From Patescibacteria group bacterium (GTDB lineage: Bacteria; Patescibacteriota; Kazan-3B-28; UBA10110): a DNA stretch of 64,000 nucleotides. The stretch is taken from NCBI GenBank assembly GCA_041659905.1, contig JBAZXK010000002.1, positions 201,832 to 265,831 of the forward strand, given 5' to 3'. Shown one piece after another: positions 18,765 to 58,726 of the stretch (position 1 is the stretch's first letter; each line of letters opens with the position of its first letter). Made by a program: the position numbers and the translations under genes. The notes under the pieces are model-generated. The model searched no databases. It saw only the letters and a program-made list of their open reading frames with translations, and was not told the DNA's origin.

Positions 18765-18822
18765 GTCATTCCGACCGCAGTGGAGGAATCTCATGAGATC
18801 CTTCGACTCCGCTCAGGATGAC
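18765..18822. repeat. Palindromic element, copy 2
   Basis: gtcattccgaccgcagtggaggaatctcatgagatccttcgactccgctcaggatgac. Confidence 0.65.
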
Positions 18823-18914
18823 GGCGCAAGGAATACGCCGTCAGTTAATAATTTATCAGATATTAAAGAGCTTATTAAGTTAATAAGCAGTTATTTTTAT
18901 TAATAATTCTTTCT

Positions 18915-18972
18915 GTCATTCCGACCGTAGTGGAGGAATCTCATGAGATCCTTCGACTCCGCTCAGGATGAC
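18915..18972. repeat. Palindromic element, copy 3 (near-identical to copy 2)
   Basis: gtcattccgaccgtagtggaggaatctcatgagatccttcgactccgctcaggatgac. Ends 15 nt before the next CDS. Confidence 0.65.
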
Positions 18973-18986
18973 AGATGTAAGGTAAT

Positions 18987-31732: not shown

Positions 31733-31802
31733 GTCATCCTGAACTTCCCACTTCCGTCATCCTGAACTTCCCACTTCCGTCATCCTGAACTAGTTTCAGG
31801 AT
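31733..31802. repeat. 23-bp tandem (gtcatcctgaacttcccacttcc) x~2.6 ending in the palindrome atcctgaactagtttcaggat
   Basis: Read directly. Overlaps the 3' end of the GIY-YIG gene. Confidence 0.6.
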
Positions 31803-32080
31803 CTCCCGAAGAGGTCTTCCCACTTTGGGTTGTTACTCTCAATTAGATTAATCTTCCACTCCCGATGCCAACGCTTTAATTGCTTCTCTCTTTGAATAGC
31901 TTCAGCAATAGTTGGGTATTCTTCCGAGTAAACTAATTTATTGAGATTGTATTTTCTCGTGAAAGAATCTGCCTGGCTGATCAAGTGTTGTTCTGATCTT
32001 TTCATCAGTTGGCTAGTAACACCGATATACAAGATACCCTTTGGCTTATTGGTGAGGATATAAACATAACCTTTCTTCAT
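31796..32080 (-). CDS. Small GIY-YIG nuclease family protein (YhbQ-like)
   Basis: KGYVYILTNKPKGILYIGVTSQLMKRSEQH matches the GIY-YIG motif. Confidence 0.75.
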   Translation of the reverse strand: MKKGYVYILTNKPKGILYIGVTSQLMKRSEQHLISQADSFTRKYNLNKLVYSEEYPTIAEAIQREKQLKRWHREWKINLIESNNPKWEDLFGRS

Positions 32081-32095
32081 AACCCCATTATAGAG

Positions 32096-32236
32096 ATCCT
32101 GAAATAAATTCAGGATGACGAAAAGGAGATATCCTGAAATGTAGAGAAATAAATCCTGGACCCTCCTACACTGAAACTACGGACGGGCAGGCAAGTCAGG
32201 ATGACGAAGTTAGGGATACTTCGTCAGTTTAGGATG
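32096..32236. repeat. Palindromes of the same family upstream of the GIY-YIG gene
   Basis: atcctgaaataaattcaggatgac, and gtcaggatgacgaagttagggatacttcgtcagtttaggatg. Confidence 0.55.
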
Positions 32237-53509: not shown

Positions 53510-53548
53510 GCGAAGCCAGGCGTAGCTTCCGTAAGGAAGCGAAGACTG
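53510..53548 (-). other. Conserved tRNA 3' trailer motif, copy 2 (downstream of tRNA-Gly on the minus strand)
   Basis: Minus strand reads cagtcttcgcttccttacggaagctacgcctggcttcgc. Hairpin gcttcc-ttac-ggaagc. Confidence 0.5.
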
Positions 53549-53620
53549 GAGCGGGATACCAGAATCGGACTGGCGCCTCAACCTTGGGAAGGTCGCATTC
53601 TACCACTAAACTAATCCCGC
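53547..53620 (-). tRNA. tRNA-Gly (CCC)
   Basis: Reverse complement gcgggattagtttagtggtagaatgcgaccttcccaaggttgaggcgccagtccgattctggtatcccgctcca. Loop TTCCCAA. Confidence 0.85.
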
Positions 53621-54010: not shown

Positions 54011-54670
54011 ATGCTGCTAGGCTCACTTTCTTTCACTACCATCGTGTTTGCTATCGTTGCCCTGATCATTGCTATCACGGTCCACGAATTTTCCCATGCC
54101 CTGATTGCTACTTGGATGGGTGATTCCACGGCTAAATTATCCGGCAGATTAACTCTTAATCCGTTAGCTCATCTCGATCCGGTTGGTTCAGTGGTGTTAT
54201 TGATCGCTGGATTTGGCTGGGGCAAGCCGGTGCCTTATAATCCGCATTTTGTCCGGCGGGGAGTCTGGGGCGAAGCTCTGATAGCTTTAGCCGGGCCGGT
54301 TAGTAATATTATAGTAGCCGCATTGTTTGCTTTGCCGGCCAGAATTTATTTTATGCAAACTGGGCAATTAGCCGATGGTAATATTTTTAAATTCTTGGCC
54401 ACGGTAGTGGTGCTCAATGTCGCTTTAGCCGCTTTTAATTTGTTTCCCATTCCGCCTTTGGATGGATCTAAAGTTTTGTATTTAATTTTAGATCGGCTGA
54501 CCTTCGGTAATGTAGATTGGTGGCCGAATTTTGAGCGCATGGGACCGATGATTTTATTGACTTTATTGTTCGCCGAGCGGCTATTCAGTATCAACATTAT
54601 TTTTAGGCTCCTAGACCCTATTATATTTTTGATCAACTGGATTACTGGCGCTAGTGGCCCAATTTTTTAG
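54011..54670 (+). CDS. Site-2 protease family (M50) membrane metalloprotease
   Basis: HEFSHAL (HExxH) and NLFPIPPLDG (LDG motif). The track ORF start 53774 was trimmed to ATG 54011 because the extension is antisense to rpmB. Confidence 0.7.
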   Translation: MLLGSLSFTTIVFAIVALIIAITVHEFSHALIATWMGDSTAKLSGRLTLNPLAHLDPVGSVVLLIAGFGWGKPVPYNPHFVRRGVWGEALIALAGPVSNIIVAALFALPARIYFMQTGQLADGNIFKFLATVVVLNVALAAFNLFPIPPLDGSKVLYLILDRLTFGNVDWWPNFERMGPMILLTLLFAERLFSINIIFRLLDPIIFLINWITGASGPIF

Positions 54671-54915
54671 ATGAGTTTTGCAGACGTAGTGTTGACGCTA
54701 TTTGTTTTGGCAATGGTAAAATAAAAGTACTCCATTGTATTCGCTAGCAATTTTGACCCAACAAAATTTCTGATACGGGATCCCTATATCGCCACGGTCC
54801 TATTAGCAAGTTGTGTCTCAAAAAATACGACTTCCTAATCGGGCTGTGGTTGCGGGAACCCACCTAGTTTACTAGGATCAGAATTTGTCTGGCGAATCTA
54901 TGGAGCTTTTAATAT

Positions 54916-55180
54916 TCCCCTCCTGCCGGAGGAGGGGTTAGGGGAGGTGGGAGTATATATTCCCCGAGCGGAGTCGAGGGGCTACCTTTGATTTTGTAAA
55001 ATCATTAAAACATTTTCTTGTTACCTTTCCAGAAAGGTAACACCAAAGCTTCAGGCAGTCGTCGAGGCTATGAAATGGCAAAAATCTCTGGGTGTTCTCG
55101 CTAAACTCGCCCTGCTGGGCTCACACATAGCTTCACCCACAGAGATTTTACTCATTTCATTACCGCCTCTCCTCCAATGC
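54916..55180. repeat. Repeated structured element, copy B (candidate ncRNA)
   Basis: See copy A. Hairpin cccctcctgccggaggagggg replaces cctccccttaccgaggggagg. Hairpin gttacctttccagaaaggtaac replaces gctaccactttgctcgtctttggtggtagc. Confidence 0.5.
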
Positions 55181-55259
55181 CCGTTTTAGAACTGCAAAAC
55201 CAGTGGCTCAATAATCCGTCGGATGGCGGATTGGGGCGCTGGAGCCGGAGGAGGGATTC

Positions 55260-55334
55260 GAACCCTCGACTTGCTGTTTACGAAACAGCTACTCTACCAC
55301 TGAGTTACTCCGGCATATTCATACACCTAAGATA
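55260..55334 (-). tRNA. tRNA-Thr (CGU)
   Basis: Reverse complement gccggagtaactcagtggtagagtagctgtttcgtaaacagcaagtcgagggttcgaatccctcctccggctcca. Loop TTCGTAA. Confidence 0.85.
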
Positions 55335-55402
55335 AATATACTATACCAATAAAAAAGAGCGCTACCTTACTCAAGGTAGCGCTATAATTGCAAACCTAAC
55401 AA

Positions 55403-56119
55403 TTACATTGCTCTTACAGTTTTTACAGGCAGATTGTTCCCCTTCGATGTGCGGATATTAGCCAATTTGGCTATTTCCTTGAGATCTGCGTCCCAGTCGA
55501 TGGGTCTGTTCAAGGTCGTACTGACTAAGTCAGCGGCCTGTTTAATGCACTGAAACAACTTGAACAGATCTACATTAGCGCCCTTCCAAATGTTTGCGAC
55601 GTCTTGGTTACCAATCGCCAATGTGGTTTTGGTGTTATTGCGTGAGCATGCCTCTGGCCAAAGCAATTCCACAAGACAATCACCATCTACTAAAGGAAAT
55701 TCTTCCTCCCGCCACTCTATGAATGGGTCTGTGGTGGGGGGATGAATGTGCACTTTTGCGTATCCACCCGTATTGACGCTGAATAACGCATCCCGGCTGA
55801 ATAACCTATCAATCACATTGTCCTTGGGTATCGATTGATAATTTAAGAAGTTATTCGTCGGAGGCAATATAGCAACGTTTATGAATTCGAGAACGGGACC
55901 ATACCAATCCCTAAAAATGTTTCCCCCGACGCGCGTATCACGGAAATGAATCGTTACTATTAATTCTCCCTCTCTCTCGGATACTTTTTCTTGCAGGCCG
56001 ATAAGAACTTGGCGATGTTTGTTGTACTCGTCCTGGTCAGGAATAGGATGAGCATATCGATCCAAAAACTTATCAATAGCTTTAACCCCATGATAAACCT
56101 TCGTTTTATTGCTAGGCAT
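55403..56119 (-). CDS. Hypothetical protein (238 aa) in a tRNA-flanked islet
   Basis: ORF only. No motif recognised. Confidence 0.4.
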   Translation of the reverse strand: MPSNKTKVYHGVKAIDKFLDRYAHPIPDQDEYNKHRQVLIGLQEKVSEREGELIVTIHFRDTRVGGNIFRDWYGPVLEFINVAILPPTNNFLNYQSIPKDNVIDRLFSRDALFSVNTGGYAKVHIHPPTTDPFIEWREEEFPLVDGDCLVELLWPEACSRNNTKTTLAIGNQDVANIWKGANVDLFKLFQCIKQAADLVSTTLNRPIDWDADLKEIAKLANIRTSKGNNLPVKTVRAM

Positions 56120-56334
56120 TTAAGCCTCCTTTACCTGTTCACAGGTAGGTACTTTCTAATGTTAATATGCGAGAACATCTTATAGTATCAAAAATAACCC
56201 CGCTGGCATAGACGAATACCCAAATTACAAACCGAAGCACGCAGTGCTGTTTGTAATTTGGAGAGGAGCAGTGACAAAGCGTTTATGACTTTTGCAAAAC
56301 TAGCAAAAGGATAAAGTGGAGTCCACTGCGACGA

Positions 56335-56411
56335 TGGTCGGGGTGCCGAGATTCGAACTCGGGACCTCACGCCCCCTAGACGTGCGCCATAAACCACTAG
56401 GCTACACCCCG
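56335..56411 (-). tRNA. tRNA-Pro, anticodon loop CUAGGGG (anticodon AGG if the stem is canonical; A34 is unusual)
   Basis: Reverse complement cggggtgtagcctagtggtttatggcgcacgtctagggggcgtgaggtcccgagttcgaatctcggcaccccgacca. Acceptor stem identical to tRNA-Pro(CGG). Confidence 0.75.
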
Positions 56412-56651
56412 TATTTTCAATATATCTCTCAGAAGTCTATGGCCAGAACCTTGTTTGAAGTATGTCTCTCTTTGCTTGGCCTGGGCTCGGGTATCATAAT
56501 CTTCTTGATAAATTATCTTCCATGGACCGCCTATTTTCTTAGTATAACTAGATATTCCCTTGTTGTGAGCGTCCAGGCGATTACTTAGATTAGCTGTCTG
56601 GCCAATATATATCTTACCCTGGCTATTGGCAATGACATAGACATAATACAT
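56397..56651 (-). CDS. Small GIY-YIG nuclease family protein (YhbQ-like); 3' end overlaps the tRNA-Pro 5' end
   Basis: MYYVYVIANSQGKIYIGQTANLSNRLDAHN. Confidence 0.7.
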   Translation of the reverse strand: MYYVYVIANSQGKIYIGQTANLSNRLDAHNKGISSYTKKIGGPWKIIYQEDYDTRAQAKQRETYFKQGSGHRLLRDILKIRGVA

Positions 56652-56742
56652 ATCTATTAGTTAGCCATAAATTCTGCTGTACAGCAGAACTACACCCCGT
56701 TTATCAATCCTATTTAATCATATCAGGTGTTATTATATAAAC

Positions 56743-57171
56743 ATGCAAAAATACATTCTTTATACAGATGGGGGGGCCAGAGGCAACCCGGGGCCGGCGG
56801 CGGCCGGGGTGGTGATTTATGATGCACACCTAAAAGAAGTTGATAAATTCGCCCATTATTTGGGAGTAGCCACGAATAATCAAGCGGAATATCAAGCGCT
56901 GATTTTAGGGCTGGGCCGGATTCAAAAACTGGTGGGCGATGCCCATAAAATTGCCGAAACTGCGGTGGAAGTATTTATGGACAGCGAATTGATCGTGAAA
57001 CAACTCTCCGGCGAATACCGCGTGAAAAACAAAGACCTAAAACCGTTAGTGGCCAAAGTCGAAGAATTGGTAGCTAAATTCGCGGCAGTCAAATTCCAAC
57101 ACATTTTCCGCGACAAAAACACTCTCGCCGATAAGTTATTGAATATCGAACTGGATAAACATACTGTCTAA
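56743..57171 (+). CDS. rnhA: Ribonuclease HI
   Basis: ILYTDGGARGNPGPAAAGVVIYD...ATNNQAEYQALILGL. Confidence 0.75.
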   Translation: MQKYILYTDGGARGNPGPAAAGVVIYDAHLKEVDKFAHYLGVATNNQAEYQALILGLGRIQKLVGDAHKIAETAVEVFMDSELIVKQLSGEYRVKNKDLKPLVAKVEELVAKFAAVKFQHIFRDKNTLADKLLNIELDKHTV

Positions 57172-57177
57172 ATAAAA

Positions 57178-57313
57178 AACGGGCAGGAGTCCCGTTTTGA
57201 GTGAGAGAGGGAAGGAGAAGAGGAGTGAAGACTAGGAGGTTTTCGGATTGGTTGAAGGAAGGTAGGAAGGAGTTCCCATCTCTCACCCGAAAAGGGAGAG
57301 TCCTGCCGTTTGA
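57178..57313. repeat. Long imperfect inverted repeat (~35-bp arms) around a purine-rich 60-bp core; the left arm doubles as the rnhA terminator
   Basis: Left arm aaacgggcaggagtcccgttttgagtgagagaggg. Right arm ccatctctcacccgaaaagggagagtcctgccgtttg, ~85% complementary. Confidence 0.5.
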
Positions 57314-58503: not shown

Positions 58504-58595
58504 GCTCGTTAGTTGTCATGCTGAATTTATTTCAGCATCTCCAGGGAGAGATCCTGAATCCGAACTTGGCCTTATGGACAGTCGGTCCAGGATGA
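58504..58595. repeat. Palindromes of the GTCATCC/GGATGAC family
   Basis: gtcatgctgaatttatttcagcat, and atcctgaatccgaacttggccttatggacagtcggtccaggatgac. Confidence 0.45.
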
Positions 58596-58726
58596 CGAAT
58601 AGGGAACAGAATGCCGGGCTCAAAGGATGTATGTCAAAGGACTGAATTTCTGACTAAATATTATATCAAAAATGGGCAGAAGTCAAGAGTTTTTGGCTCT
58701 GGGAGAGGATAATTTATATACAATAA

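Follow-up and report, generated by a model that had tools for sequence, protein, structure and literature searches.

Evidence for insertion of a small GIY-YIG nuclease gene into tRNA-Pro, beside a hypervariable tRNA-bounded slot, in a patescibacterial genome

The locus described here is a pair of tRNA genes with their neighbours, within a 64,000-nucleotide (nt) stretch of a Patescibacteria metagenome-assembled genome (the window, in which all coordinates are numbered). An RNase HI gene on the plus strand (56743–57171; Pfam RVT_3 and RNase_H; orthologues 81–91% identical) forms a conserved flank. Diverging from it on the minus strand are an 84-amino-acid (aa) stand-alone GIY-YIG open reading frame (ORF; 56397–56651; Pfam PF01541, a UPF0213/Slx1-like minimal domain), an intact tRNA-Pro(AGG) with encoded CCA (56335–56411; ARAGORN, and Rfam at 59 bits), a 238-aa orphan identified by ORF calling (55403–56119; "hypothetical protein" WC805_03190 at NCBI) and tRNA-Thr(CGT) (55240–55314; ARAGORN, and Rfam at 72.6 bits). 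An earlier note on this DNA had placed both protein genes between tRNA-Thr and tRNA-Pro; this holds for the 238-aa ORF, whereas the GIY-YIG gene lies 5′ of tRNA-Pro. The note was right about the gene coordinates and about the overlap of the nuclease gene with the tRNA: the two share 15 nt (four sense codons and the stop), with the TAG stop (56399–56397) formed by tRNA-Pro nucleotides 13–15. The region is 100% identical in two further assemblies (ENA ERZ27249449, an 89-kb contig, and Logan SRR6484324); since three assemblies agree, the arrangement is not an assembly artefact or a one-off chimera. Records of the 84-aa protein come only from ENA and Logan gene calling, whereas its neighbours have NCBI entries as well; the gene appears to be absent from the NCBI annotation, probably owing to its overlap with the tRNA.

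The sequence offers strong evidence that the GIY-YIG segment was inserted into tRNA-Pro. An 11-nt direct repeat, ACGGGGTGTAG, covering tRNA positions −1 to 10 (the nucleotide just before the tRNA and its first ten), occurs at 56402–56412 (right copy, minus strand, from a repeat scan) and again, preceding A included, at 56690–56700 (left copy). Spaced 288 nt apart, the two flank the GIY-YIG ORF and are the sole exact matches in 64 kb, where ~0.03 would be expected. Between them lies a 277-nt insert (56413–56689, minus strand), with a GC content of 38% versus 44% for the window and, by blastn, present in none of the relatives. Its left junction falls after tRNA-Pro nucleotide 10. Beyond that junction, and reaching the start of the divergent RNase HI gene, 56690–56742 (minus strand) is a ghost of the tRNA, retaining its 5′ end (nucleotides 1–10) and the native leader and promoter region. 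The minus-strand sequence CATGTTTATATAATAACACCTGATATGATTAAATAGGATTGATAAA stands upstream of the second ACGGGGTGTAG copy.

Relatives (loci numbered L001 onwards) were found by a tRNA-Pro(AGG) pattern search and through the RNase HI orthologues with their contigs. The pattern scans gave two matches in GTDB genomes and two in JGI metagenomes, most relatives coming by way of RNase HI, and the comparison set amounts to about 13 distinct related locus types, all of them without the GIY-YIG gene at this site. Three loci preserve the empty site. The 53 nt at 56690–56742 are 92–96% identical to sequence that enters an intact tRNA-Pro directly in L024, L027 and L023; there it spans the distance from the start codon of a divergent gene (RNase HI in L024, His_Phos_1 in L027 and, by layout, L023) to the tRNA. 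By blastn, window 56690–56742 aligns with L027 304–357 and the tRNA with L027 237–313, and the 10-nt overlap of these two alignments denotes a target duplication. For 56425–56689, blastn found no homologue in any of the 13 locus types. The regenerated tRNA-Pro has exactly the sequence found in eight relatives (L003–L006 and L027–L030). Immediately before the real tRNA stand 12 nt, ATATTGAAAATA, that supply the last codons of the GIY-YIG ORF and look like the leader found natively in L003 and L006, AGATTGAAAAGAA; from this likeness the repeat is probably an imperfect one of ~22 nt, and the foreign DNA probably ~265 nt long.

The insert opens at its left junction with a perfect 18-nt palindrome, TTCTGCTGTACAGCAGAA (56672–56689), unique in the window and found in none of the loci. 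An 8-mer equal to tRNA nucleotides 19–26 follows, a match that is suggestive only (chance ~3% by a rough hand estimate). Neither a Shine-Dalgarno sequence nor a stop codon of its own was found in the insert; the last GIY-YIG codons are supplied by the tRNA leader and tRNA nucleotides 1–15, and the tRNA's original promoter and leader are now found ahead of the nuclease gene. Around 56413–56689 there is no transposase domain (Pfam) and there are no terminal inverted repeats, only the direct target repeat. An Rfam E-value scan of 54600–57300 returned the tRNAs and weak unrelated matches, with no group I or group II intron around the insert. The literature searches made here turned up no account of a chromosomal tRNA gene whose 5′ end had taken in a minimal stand-alone GIY-YIG gene, the tRNA being restored by duplication.

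The 84-aa protein matches PF01541 over residues 1–69 (E 2.7e-16) and, in the PDB, 1YWL (UPF0213 EF2693, E 1.5e-5) and 1ZG2 (E 3.9e-3). Y3/Y5, Y15, G17, R25, H29 and E62 are invariant across four sequences, the catalytic Tyr, Tyr, Arg and Glu being kept. As a single domain with no auxiliary domain, it fits the stand-alone UPF0213/prokaryotic Slx1-like class, a described family whose members are widespread host proteins (PMC1564403). The viral scan gave nothing, and phage tblastn only distant matches of ~30% identity. A further point of reference is provided by the Ssn family (CDD cd10448; Chenal et al. 2025, PMC11893778), whose members have a single GIY-YIG domain and cleave single-stranded DNA site-specifically, beside the hairpins that flank their own genes. 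The C-terminal W.R.WK..LIE..NP.W.DL segment of Ssn-type homologues is missing from the 84-aa protein. Ssn hairpin flanks were not found at its gene, which has one unique palindrome on the 5′ side only and no CGTCAT flank; the published SRM pattern has 0 matches in the window.

On the other side of tRNA-Pro, the interval up to tRNA-Thr is hypervariable among the relatives. The conserved core of these loci comprises tRNA-Pro(AGG), tRNA-Thr(CGT) and RNase HI, with an M50 peptidase, L28 and tRNA-Gly on the other side. The presence/absence comparison proposed in the earlier note bears out its view in this respect: the interval is not conserved across the 13 locus types, and the spacer is empty, or holds orphan ORFs or an HNH gene. 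It measures 1 nt in L021, L026, L027 and L033, 44 nt in L005, 88 nt in L035, 109 nt in L003 and 150 nt in L028; it carries a 188-aa orphan ORF in L007-type loci, L024 and L025, a 229-aa orphan in L006, the 238/235-aa ORF in the window and L001/L002, and an HNH endonuclease gene in L004 (PHROG E 5e-18). The 188- and 229-aa proteins are related (BLASTP E 2e-7). Set against its flanks, the Pro–Thr block runs in the inverted orientation in the window, L005, L023, L024, L027, L028 and L033, and in the direct one in L003, L006, L021 and L035; in L007-type loci the M50–L28–tRNA-Gly block is the inverted part. The block (window 55187–56742) has flipped repeatedly with respect to its M50 and RNase HI neighbours. 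In L024, two RNase HI genes in inverted orientation surround the tRNA block and could be either a substrate for such flips or an assembly chimera.

The HNH gene of L004 (4420–5204, minus strand) repeats the layout of the GIY-YIG insert at the neighbouring tRNA. It lies between tRNA-Pro and tRNA-Thr, and 62 nt upstream of its ATG stands a perfect 28-nt ghost of tRNA-Thr (nucleotides 1–28 of the L005-type allele; local alignment score 56 versus a shuffled maximum of 24). Its TAA stop falls inside the intact downstream tRNA-Thr, with an overlap of 10 nt, and that intact tRNA is of a different allele class from the ghost. Across the window and L001–L030, the only ORFs that end in the first 15 nt of any tRNA are the 84-aa GIY-YIG ORF and this HNH gene. 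Two unrelated nuclease families therefore share one architecture: a ghost 5′ tRNA, a stop-less nuclease ORF and an intact tRNA.

Two allele classes of tRNA-Thr(CGT) occur in the window and L001–L035: T1 (75 nt, the class of the window's gene, which is identical in L001) and T2 (76 nt), ~76–78% identical to each other. All cassette-bearing loci are T1, and all T2 loci have an empty spacer; the 238-, 188- and 229-aa orphans are always followed by a T1 tRNA-Thr. T2 ghosts lie beside the HNH cassette of L004 and possibly beside the 229-aa cassette of L006, where a 13-nt tRNA-ghost match is borderline. No tRNA ghosts were found beside the 238-aa or 188-aa cassettes.

The 238-aa ORF belongs to a self-contained cassette (55315–56211, minus strand) homologous only to L001/L002. 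In minus-strand order, this consists of a promoter-like site (56191→56164), a hairpin and Shine-Dalgarno sequence in the 5′ untranslated region (UTR), the ORF, an intrinsic terminator (55383→55358) and TGGTATAGT, a −10-like element between the terminator and tRNA-Thr. Identity to L001/L002 is 79% at the nucleotide level (window 55240–56211) and 68% at the amino-acid level. Libraries of 5.8 billion and 1.84 billion proteins hold one homologue only, P0002 (68% identity), and an HMMER profile search of the 1.84 billion likewise returned P0002 alone. A dN/dS of 0.27 (dS 0.77) against the 235-aa homologue of L001 marks the ORF as a real gene under purifying selection. In the alignment of 55315–56211 with L001, nearly all columns of the UTR, terminator and promoter flanks are invariant (a reading of columns, no flank identity having been computed); the ORF and cassette matches, at ~76–79% nucleotide identity and dS 0.77, lie far below this flank conservation, and close to the ORF's 3′ terminus a stretch of ~40 nt is 100% identical to L001. 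The conserved flanks and the 40-nt block suggest recombination or nucleotide-level constraint.

Between tRNA-Pro and the cassette is a structured spacer of 123 nt (56212–56334, minus strand) that has no homologue in any relative locus. It contains a hairpin with a 13-bp stem (56220–56261); the fold z-score of −4.5 was computed on the wider stretch 56120–56340. Left of the cassette, L001 has an L003-type Pro–Thr spacer and the window has the 56212–56334 segment, so the 238-aa cassette occurs in two contexts. The ORF is as unannotatable as the earlier note had it, with no match in Pfam, NCBIfam, PHROGs, PADLOC, a PDB profile search, phage and plasmid tblastn or viral contigs. AlphaFold2 gave a predicted local distance difference test (pLDDT) score of ~36 from both a two-sequence alignment and the single sequence. 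There is no evidence for the toxin or defence role that had been proposed, as PADLOC, Pfam, NCBIfam, PHROGs and the PDB yielded no known family of that kind, and the searches run found no housekeeping family either. The gene may, tentatively, be an exchangeable accessory or selfish gene, neither housekeeping nor cargo of the GIY-YIG element.

The second GIY-YIG gene of the window is of a different kind. A 94-aa ORF of probable Ssn type (31796–32080; PF01541, E 2.4e-17), it forms with its hairpins a unit at 31775–32123 (minus strand). Palindromic and tandem repeats do flank it, as noted earlier: 31-nt inverted hairpin arms (31775–31805 and 32093–32123), which begin CGTCATCCTGAA, bracket the gene, and a 23-nt tandem repeat adjoins it. 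The CGTCATCCTGAA motif has 15 copies in the window versus 4.7 expected. Homologues in L005 (phmmer E 2e-27) and L006 have the same hairpin–gene–hairpin layout, and the L005 hairpins agree in full with CGTCATTCCCGCGMAVGCGGGAATCYRG, the NTS consensus of Neisseria. The hairpins of the window's gene do not conform to the degenerate SRM pattern as published (CGTCAT + palindrome + C type) and would have to be a sequence variant. In place of the homing-like unit suggested before, the published Ssn/SRM architecture is the better match, and the gene may well belong to that family (PMC11893778). Further solo CGTCATCCTGA-type hairpins (SRM-like) occur away from any GIY-YIG gene at 18812–18973, 53271, 58514–58597 and 58940. 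Ssn-type GIY-YIG genes with inverted hairpin flanks also adjoin the tRNA pair itself in L006 (1551–1901) and L005 (17–390), 67 nt upstream of tRNA-Pro in one case and 85 nt past tRNA-Thr in the other. Another GIY-YIG gene lies ~1.1 kb from tRNA-Gly in L021.

We favour, with a probability of about 60%, a reading in which two independent accessory insertions occurred at a recombination-prone tRNA operon, a selfish GIY-YIG insert in tRNA-Pro and a separate 238-aa cassette. A segment of ~265–277 nt, comprising the palindrome and the stop-less GIY-YIG ORF, entered the tRNA-Pro gene. A direct repeat of the target rebuilt an intact tRNA downstream, leaving promoter, leader and nucleotides 1–10 as a ghost upstream. 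On the favoured reading, the nuclease ORF would be read from the promoter that serves the tRNA, forming a long 5′ leader on the precursor transcript. Cleavage by RNase P would free a normal tRNA-Pro, and the insertion would on that account be nearly neutral; the same cleavage would part the ORF from its stop codon, holding nuclease expression low. The GIY-YIG gene would be a selfish free-standing nuclease element, homing-like or Ssn-like. The earlier proposal of a mobile, homing-like gene survives in part: a strain-specific insertion with target duplication, and empty sites in relatives, speak for mobility, whereas homing is not shown, since the protein lacks a DNA-binding domain and the searches turned up neither a second copy nor a close homologue. 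Evidence for mobility comprises one event and one analogue (the HNH gene of L004), short of repeated mobility.

Several points weigh against this reading. Transcription from the tRNA promoter and processing by RNase P are both inferences, and a promoter-like site inside the GIY-YIG ORF (56632→56604) could drive the tRNA independently. A target duplication of 10–22 nt is not a product of double-strand-break homing. Characterised GIY-YIG homing endonucleases carry a DNA-binding domain; the 84-aa protein has only its catalytic domain in Pfam and NCBIfam scans, with no sequence-specific DNA-binding module. There is no second copy of its gene in the window, and a word-indexed protein search, insensitive for 84 aa, returned the query alone. 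For the cassette, function searches offer no clue to the role of the 238-aa protein. A candidate kinship of this protein with the 188- and 229-aa slot proteins, as a diverged homologue, was also considered, from "ILPP/IIPPD" and "IGNQ/IGNE..W" motifs and a local hhalign P of 0.007; it proved unsupported, with a hidden Markov model shuffle p of 0.04–0.32.

The strongest competitor, unlikely but to be taken seriously, is a one-off illegitimate rearrangement that carried a host UPF0213/Ssn-like nuclease gene into the tRNA-Pro leader by duplication or microhomology, the repeat being a by-product. The GIY-YIG gene is indeed single-copy and without terminal inverted repeats, stand-alone GIY-YIG proteins are common host proteins (PMC1564403), and the region tends to rearrange, its tRNA block having been inverted recurrently. 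Such an event does not sit well with an insert lower in GC than the window and present in no relative. Nor does it account for the unrelated HNH gene of L004, with the same ghost and a stop within the neighbouring tRNA, or for the recurrence of other GIY-YIG genes near the tRNA pair in L005 and L006.

A bolder extension of the favoured reading, which we regard as doubtful, makes the Pro–Thr operon a landing pad for undescribed minimal selfish nuclease cassettes. These would break the 5′ part of a tRNA and rebuild it from a duplicated or imported 5′ segment; lacking their own promoter and stop, they would be expressed as the leader of a tRNA precursor, with RNase P then separating host tRNA and parasite. 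The GIY-YIG insert and the L004 HNH gene would be two instances, and the 238-, 188- and 229-aa orphans would be unrecognised nucleases driving replacement of the resident tRNA-Thr allele. Somewhat less probable still is a functionless GIY-YIG ORF, decaying or inactive, that runs into the tRNA only because the first in-frame stop happens to fall there. The ORF has no upstream Shine-Dalgarno sequence, no stop of its own and no Ssn-type C-terminal segment, but its 84 codons are intact and none of the catalytic residues has been lost; the adjacent RNase HI gene has no Shine-Dalgarno sequence either, so that absence is not diagnostic. Scarcely credible, and largely refuted, is the single mobile islet of the earlier note, bounded by two tRNAs and carrying the 238-aa gene as toxin or defence cargo of a GIY-YIG homing unit: the two genes are neighbours and both are missing from most relatives, but the 238-aa gene is not cargo because the conserved core tRNA-Pro lies between them and the insert limits (56413–56689) exclude it, the 235-aa cassette of L001 abuts an L003-type spacer and so has another left boundary, the slot holds orphans or HNH in genomes without GIY-YIG at tRNA-Pro, and PADLOC, Pfam and PHROGs have no match to the 238-aa protein.

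The insertion as favoured here resembles several known systems in part. Free-standing GIY-YIG and HNH homing endonuclease genes occur in phage tRNA clusters, for example SegB of phage T4 (PMC2330249; PMC2988022). Like SegB, the tRNA-Pro GIY-YIG gene is a nuclease gene among tRNA genes, present or absent between close relatives, and would be a selfish rider on an essential RNA region. SegB, however, is a phage protein of ~220 aa with a DNA-binding region and its gene lies between tRNA genes, whereas the tRNA-Pro GIY-YIG protein is an 84-aa bare catalytic domain encoded on a bacterial chromosome, and its insert breaks into a tRNA gene that is rebuilt through a direct repeat. Integrase-mediated islands likewise enter tRNA genes and restore the tRNA with a duplicated stretch; unlike these, the insert has no integrase, is only 277 nt long and duplicates the 5′, not the 3′, end. 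In fungal mitochondria, as in Allomyces atp6, mobile endonuclease ORFs enter the end of a host gene and bring a replacement copy of that end. There, too, an essential gene is hit harmlessly, its displaced terminus duplicated and a ghost left behind; those events affect 3′ ends of protein-coding genes and give in-frame fusions, whereas the window's insert affects a tRNA 5′ end and its ORF reads into the tRNA.

GIY-YIG ORFs also occur in non-intron insertion sequences of rRNA genes in the Candidate Phyla Radiation (CPR; PMC11270868). The tRNA-Pro insert shares with these the CPR setting, a GIY-YIG ORF in a structural RNA gene and the lack of a group I or II intron ribozyme; the rRNA insertions interrupt their rRNA and need removal or tolerance, whereas the tRNA has been regenerated by duplication and needs no splicing. 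With Ssn (PMC11893778), the tRNA-Pro GIY-YIG protein has in common a single domain of about 90 aa and a hairpin at the gene boundary. It differs in having no C-terminal segment and, instead of a multi-copy hairpin, a single, one-sided, unique palindrome; the Ssn paper describes no insertions into tRNA genes.

Were the arrangement general, a bare 84-aa nuclease domain could ride an essential tRNA gene harmlessly in a streamlined genome, using the tRNA's promoter while RNase P released the tRNA. The case bears on the mobility of the newly described stand-alone GIY-YIG (Ssn-like) genes, for which it gives a defined pair of filled and empty alleles. Nuclease genes of this kind, overlapping tRNAs, may be systematically undercounted. 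The small tRNA-bounded slot, with its fast turnover of orphan genes, is a place to seek new selfish or accessory families in CPR bacteria.

Other RNA features were seen nearby. The AGG anticodon (A34) of tRNA-Pro is kept across the whole clade (window 56335–56411; relative loci L003–L035). Bacterial A34/I34 tRNAs are normally tRNA-Arg only, plus tRNA-Leu in some (PMC8266599); by that standard a conserved bacterial tRNA-Pro(AGG) is unusual. At 54726–54910 (plus strand) lies a full-length, sub-threshold match to 6S RNA (34.9 bits, where the gathering score is 46.4; E 9e-5), in an ORF-free stretch past the M50 peptidase gene; most of that stretch is 81–93% identical in many relatives (73% in L004). 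Judged on its sequence, it is probably a divergent CPR 6S RNA gene. Finally, a conserved 3′ tRNA trailer, CCA-GTCTTCGCTCC..GGAGC.TCGCCTGGCT.CGCC, occurs, in this or a similar form, in the window at 47677–47690 (plus strand), 53536–53549 (minus strand) and 57222–57235 (minus strand), and in L003, L005 and L006. It follows tRNA-Arg and tRNA-Gly in the window and tRNA-Pro or tRNA-Thr in the relatives; a trailer-like motif stands after RNase HI, with no tRNA adjoining.

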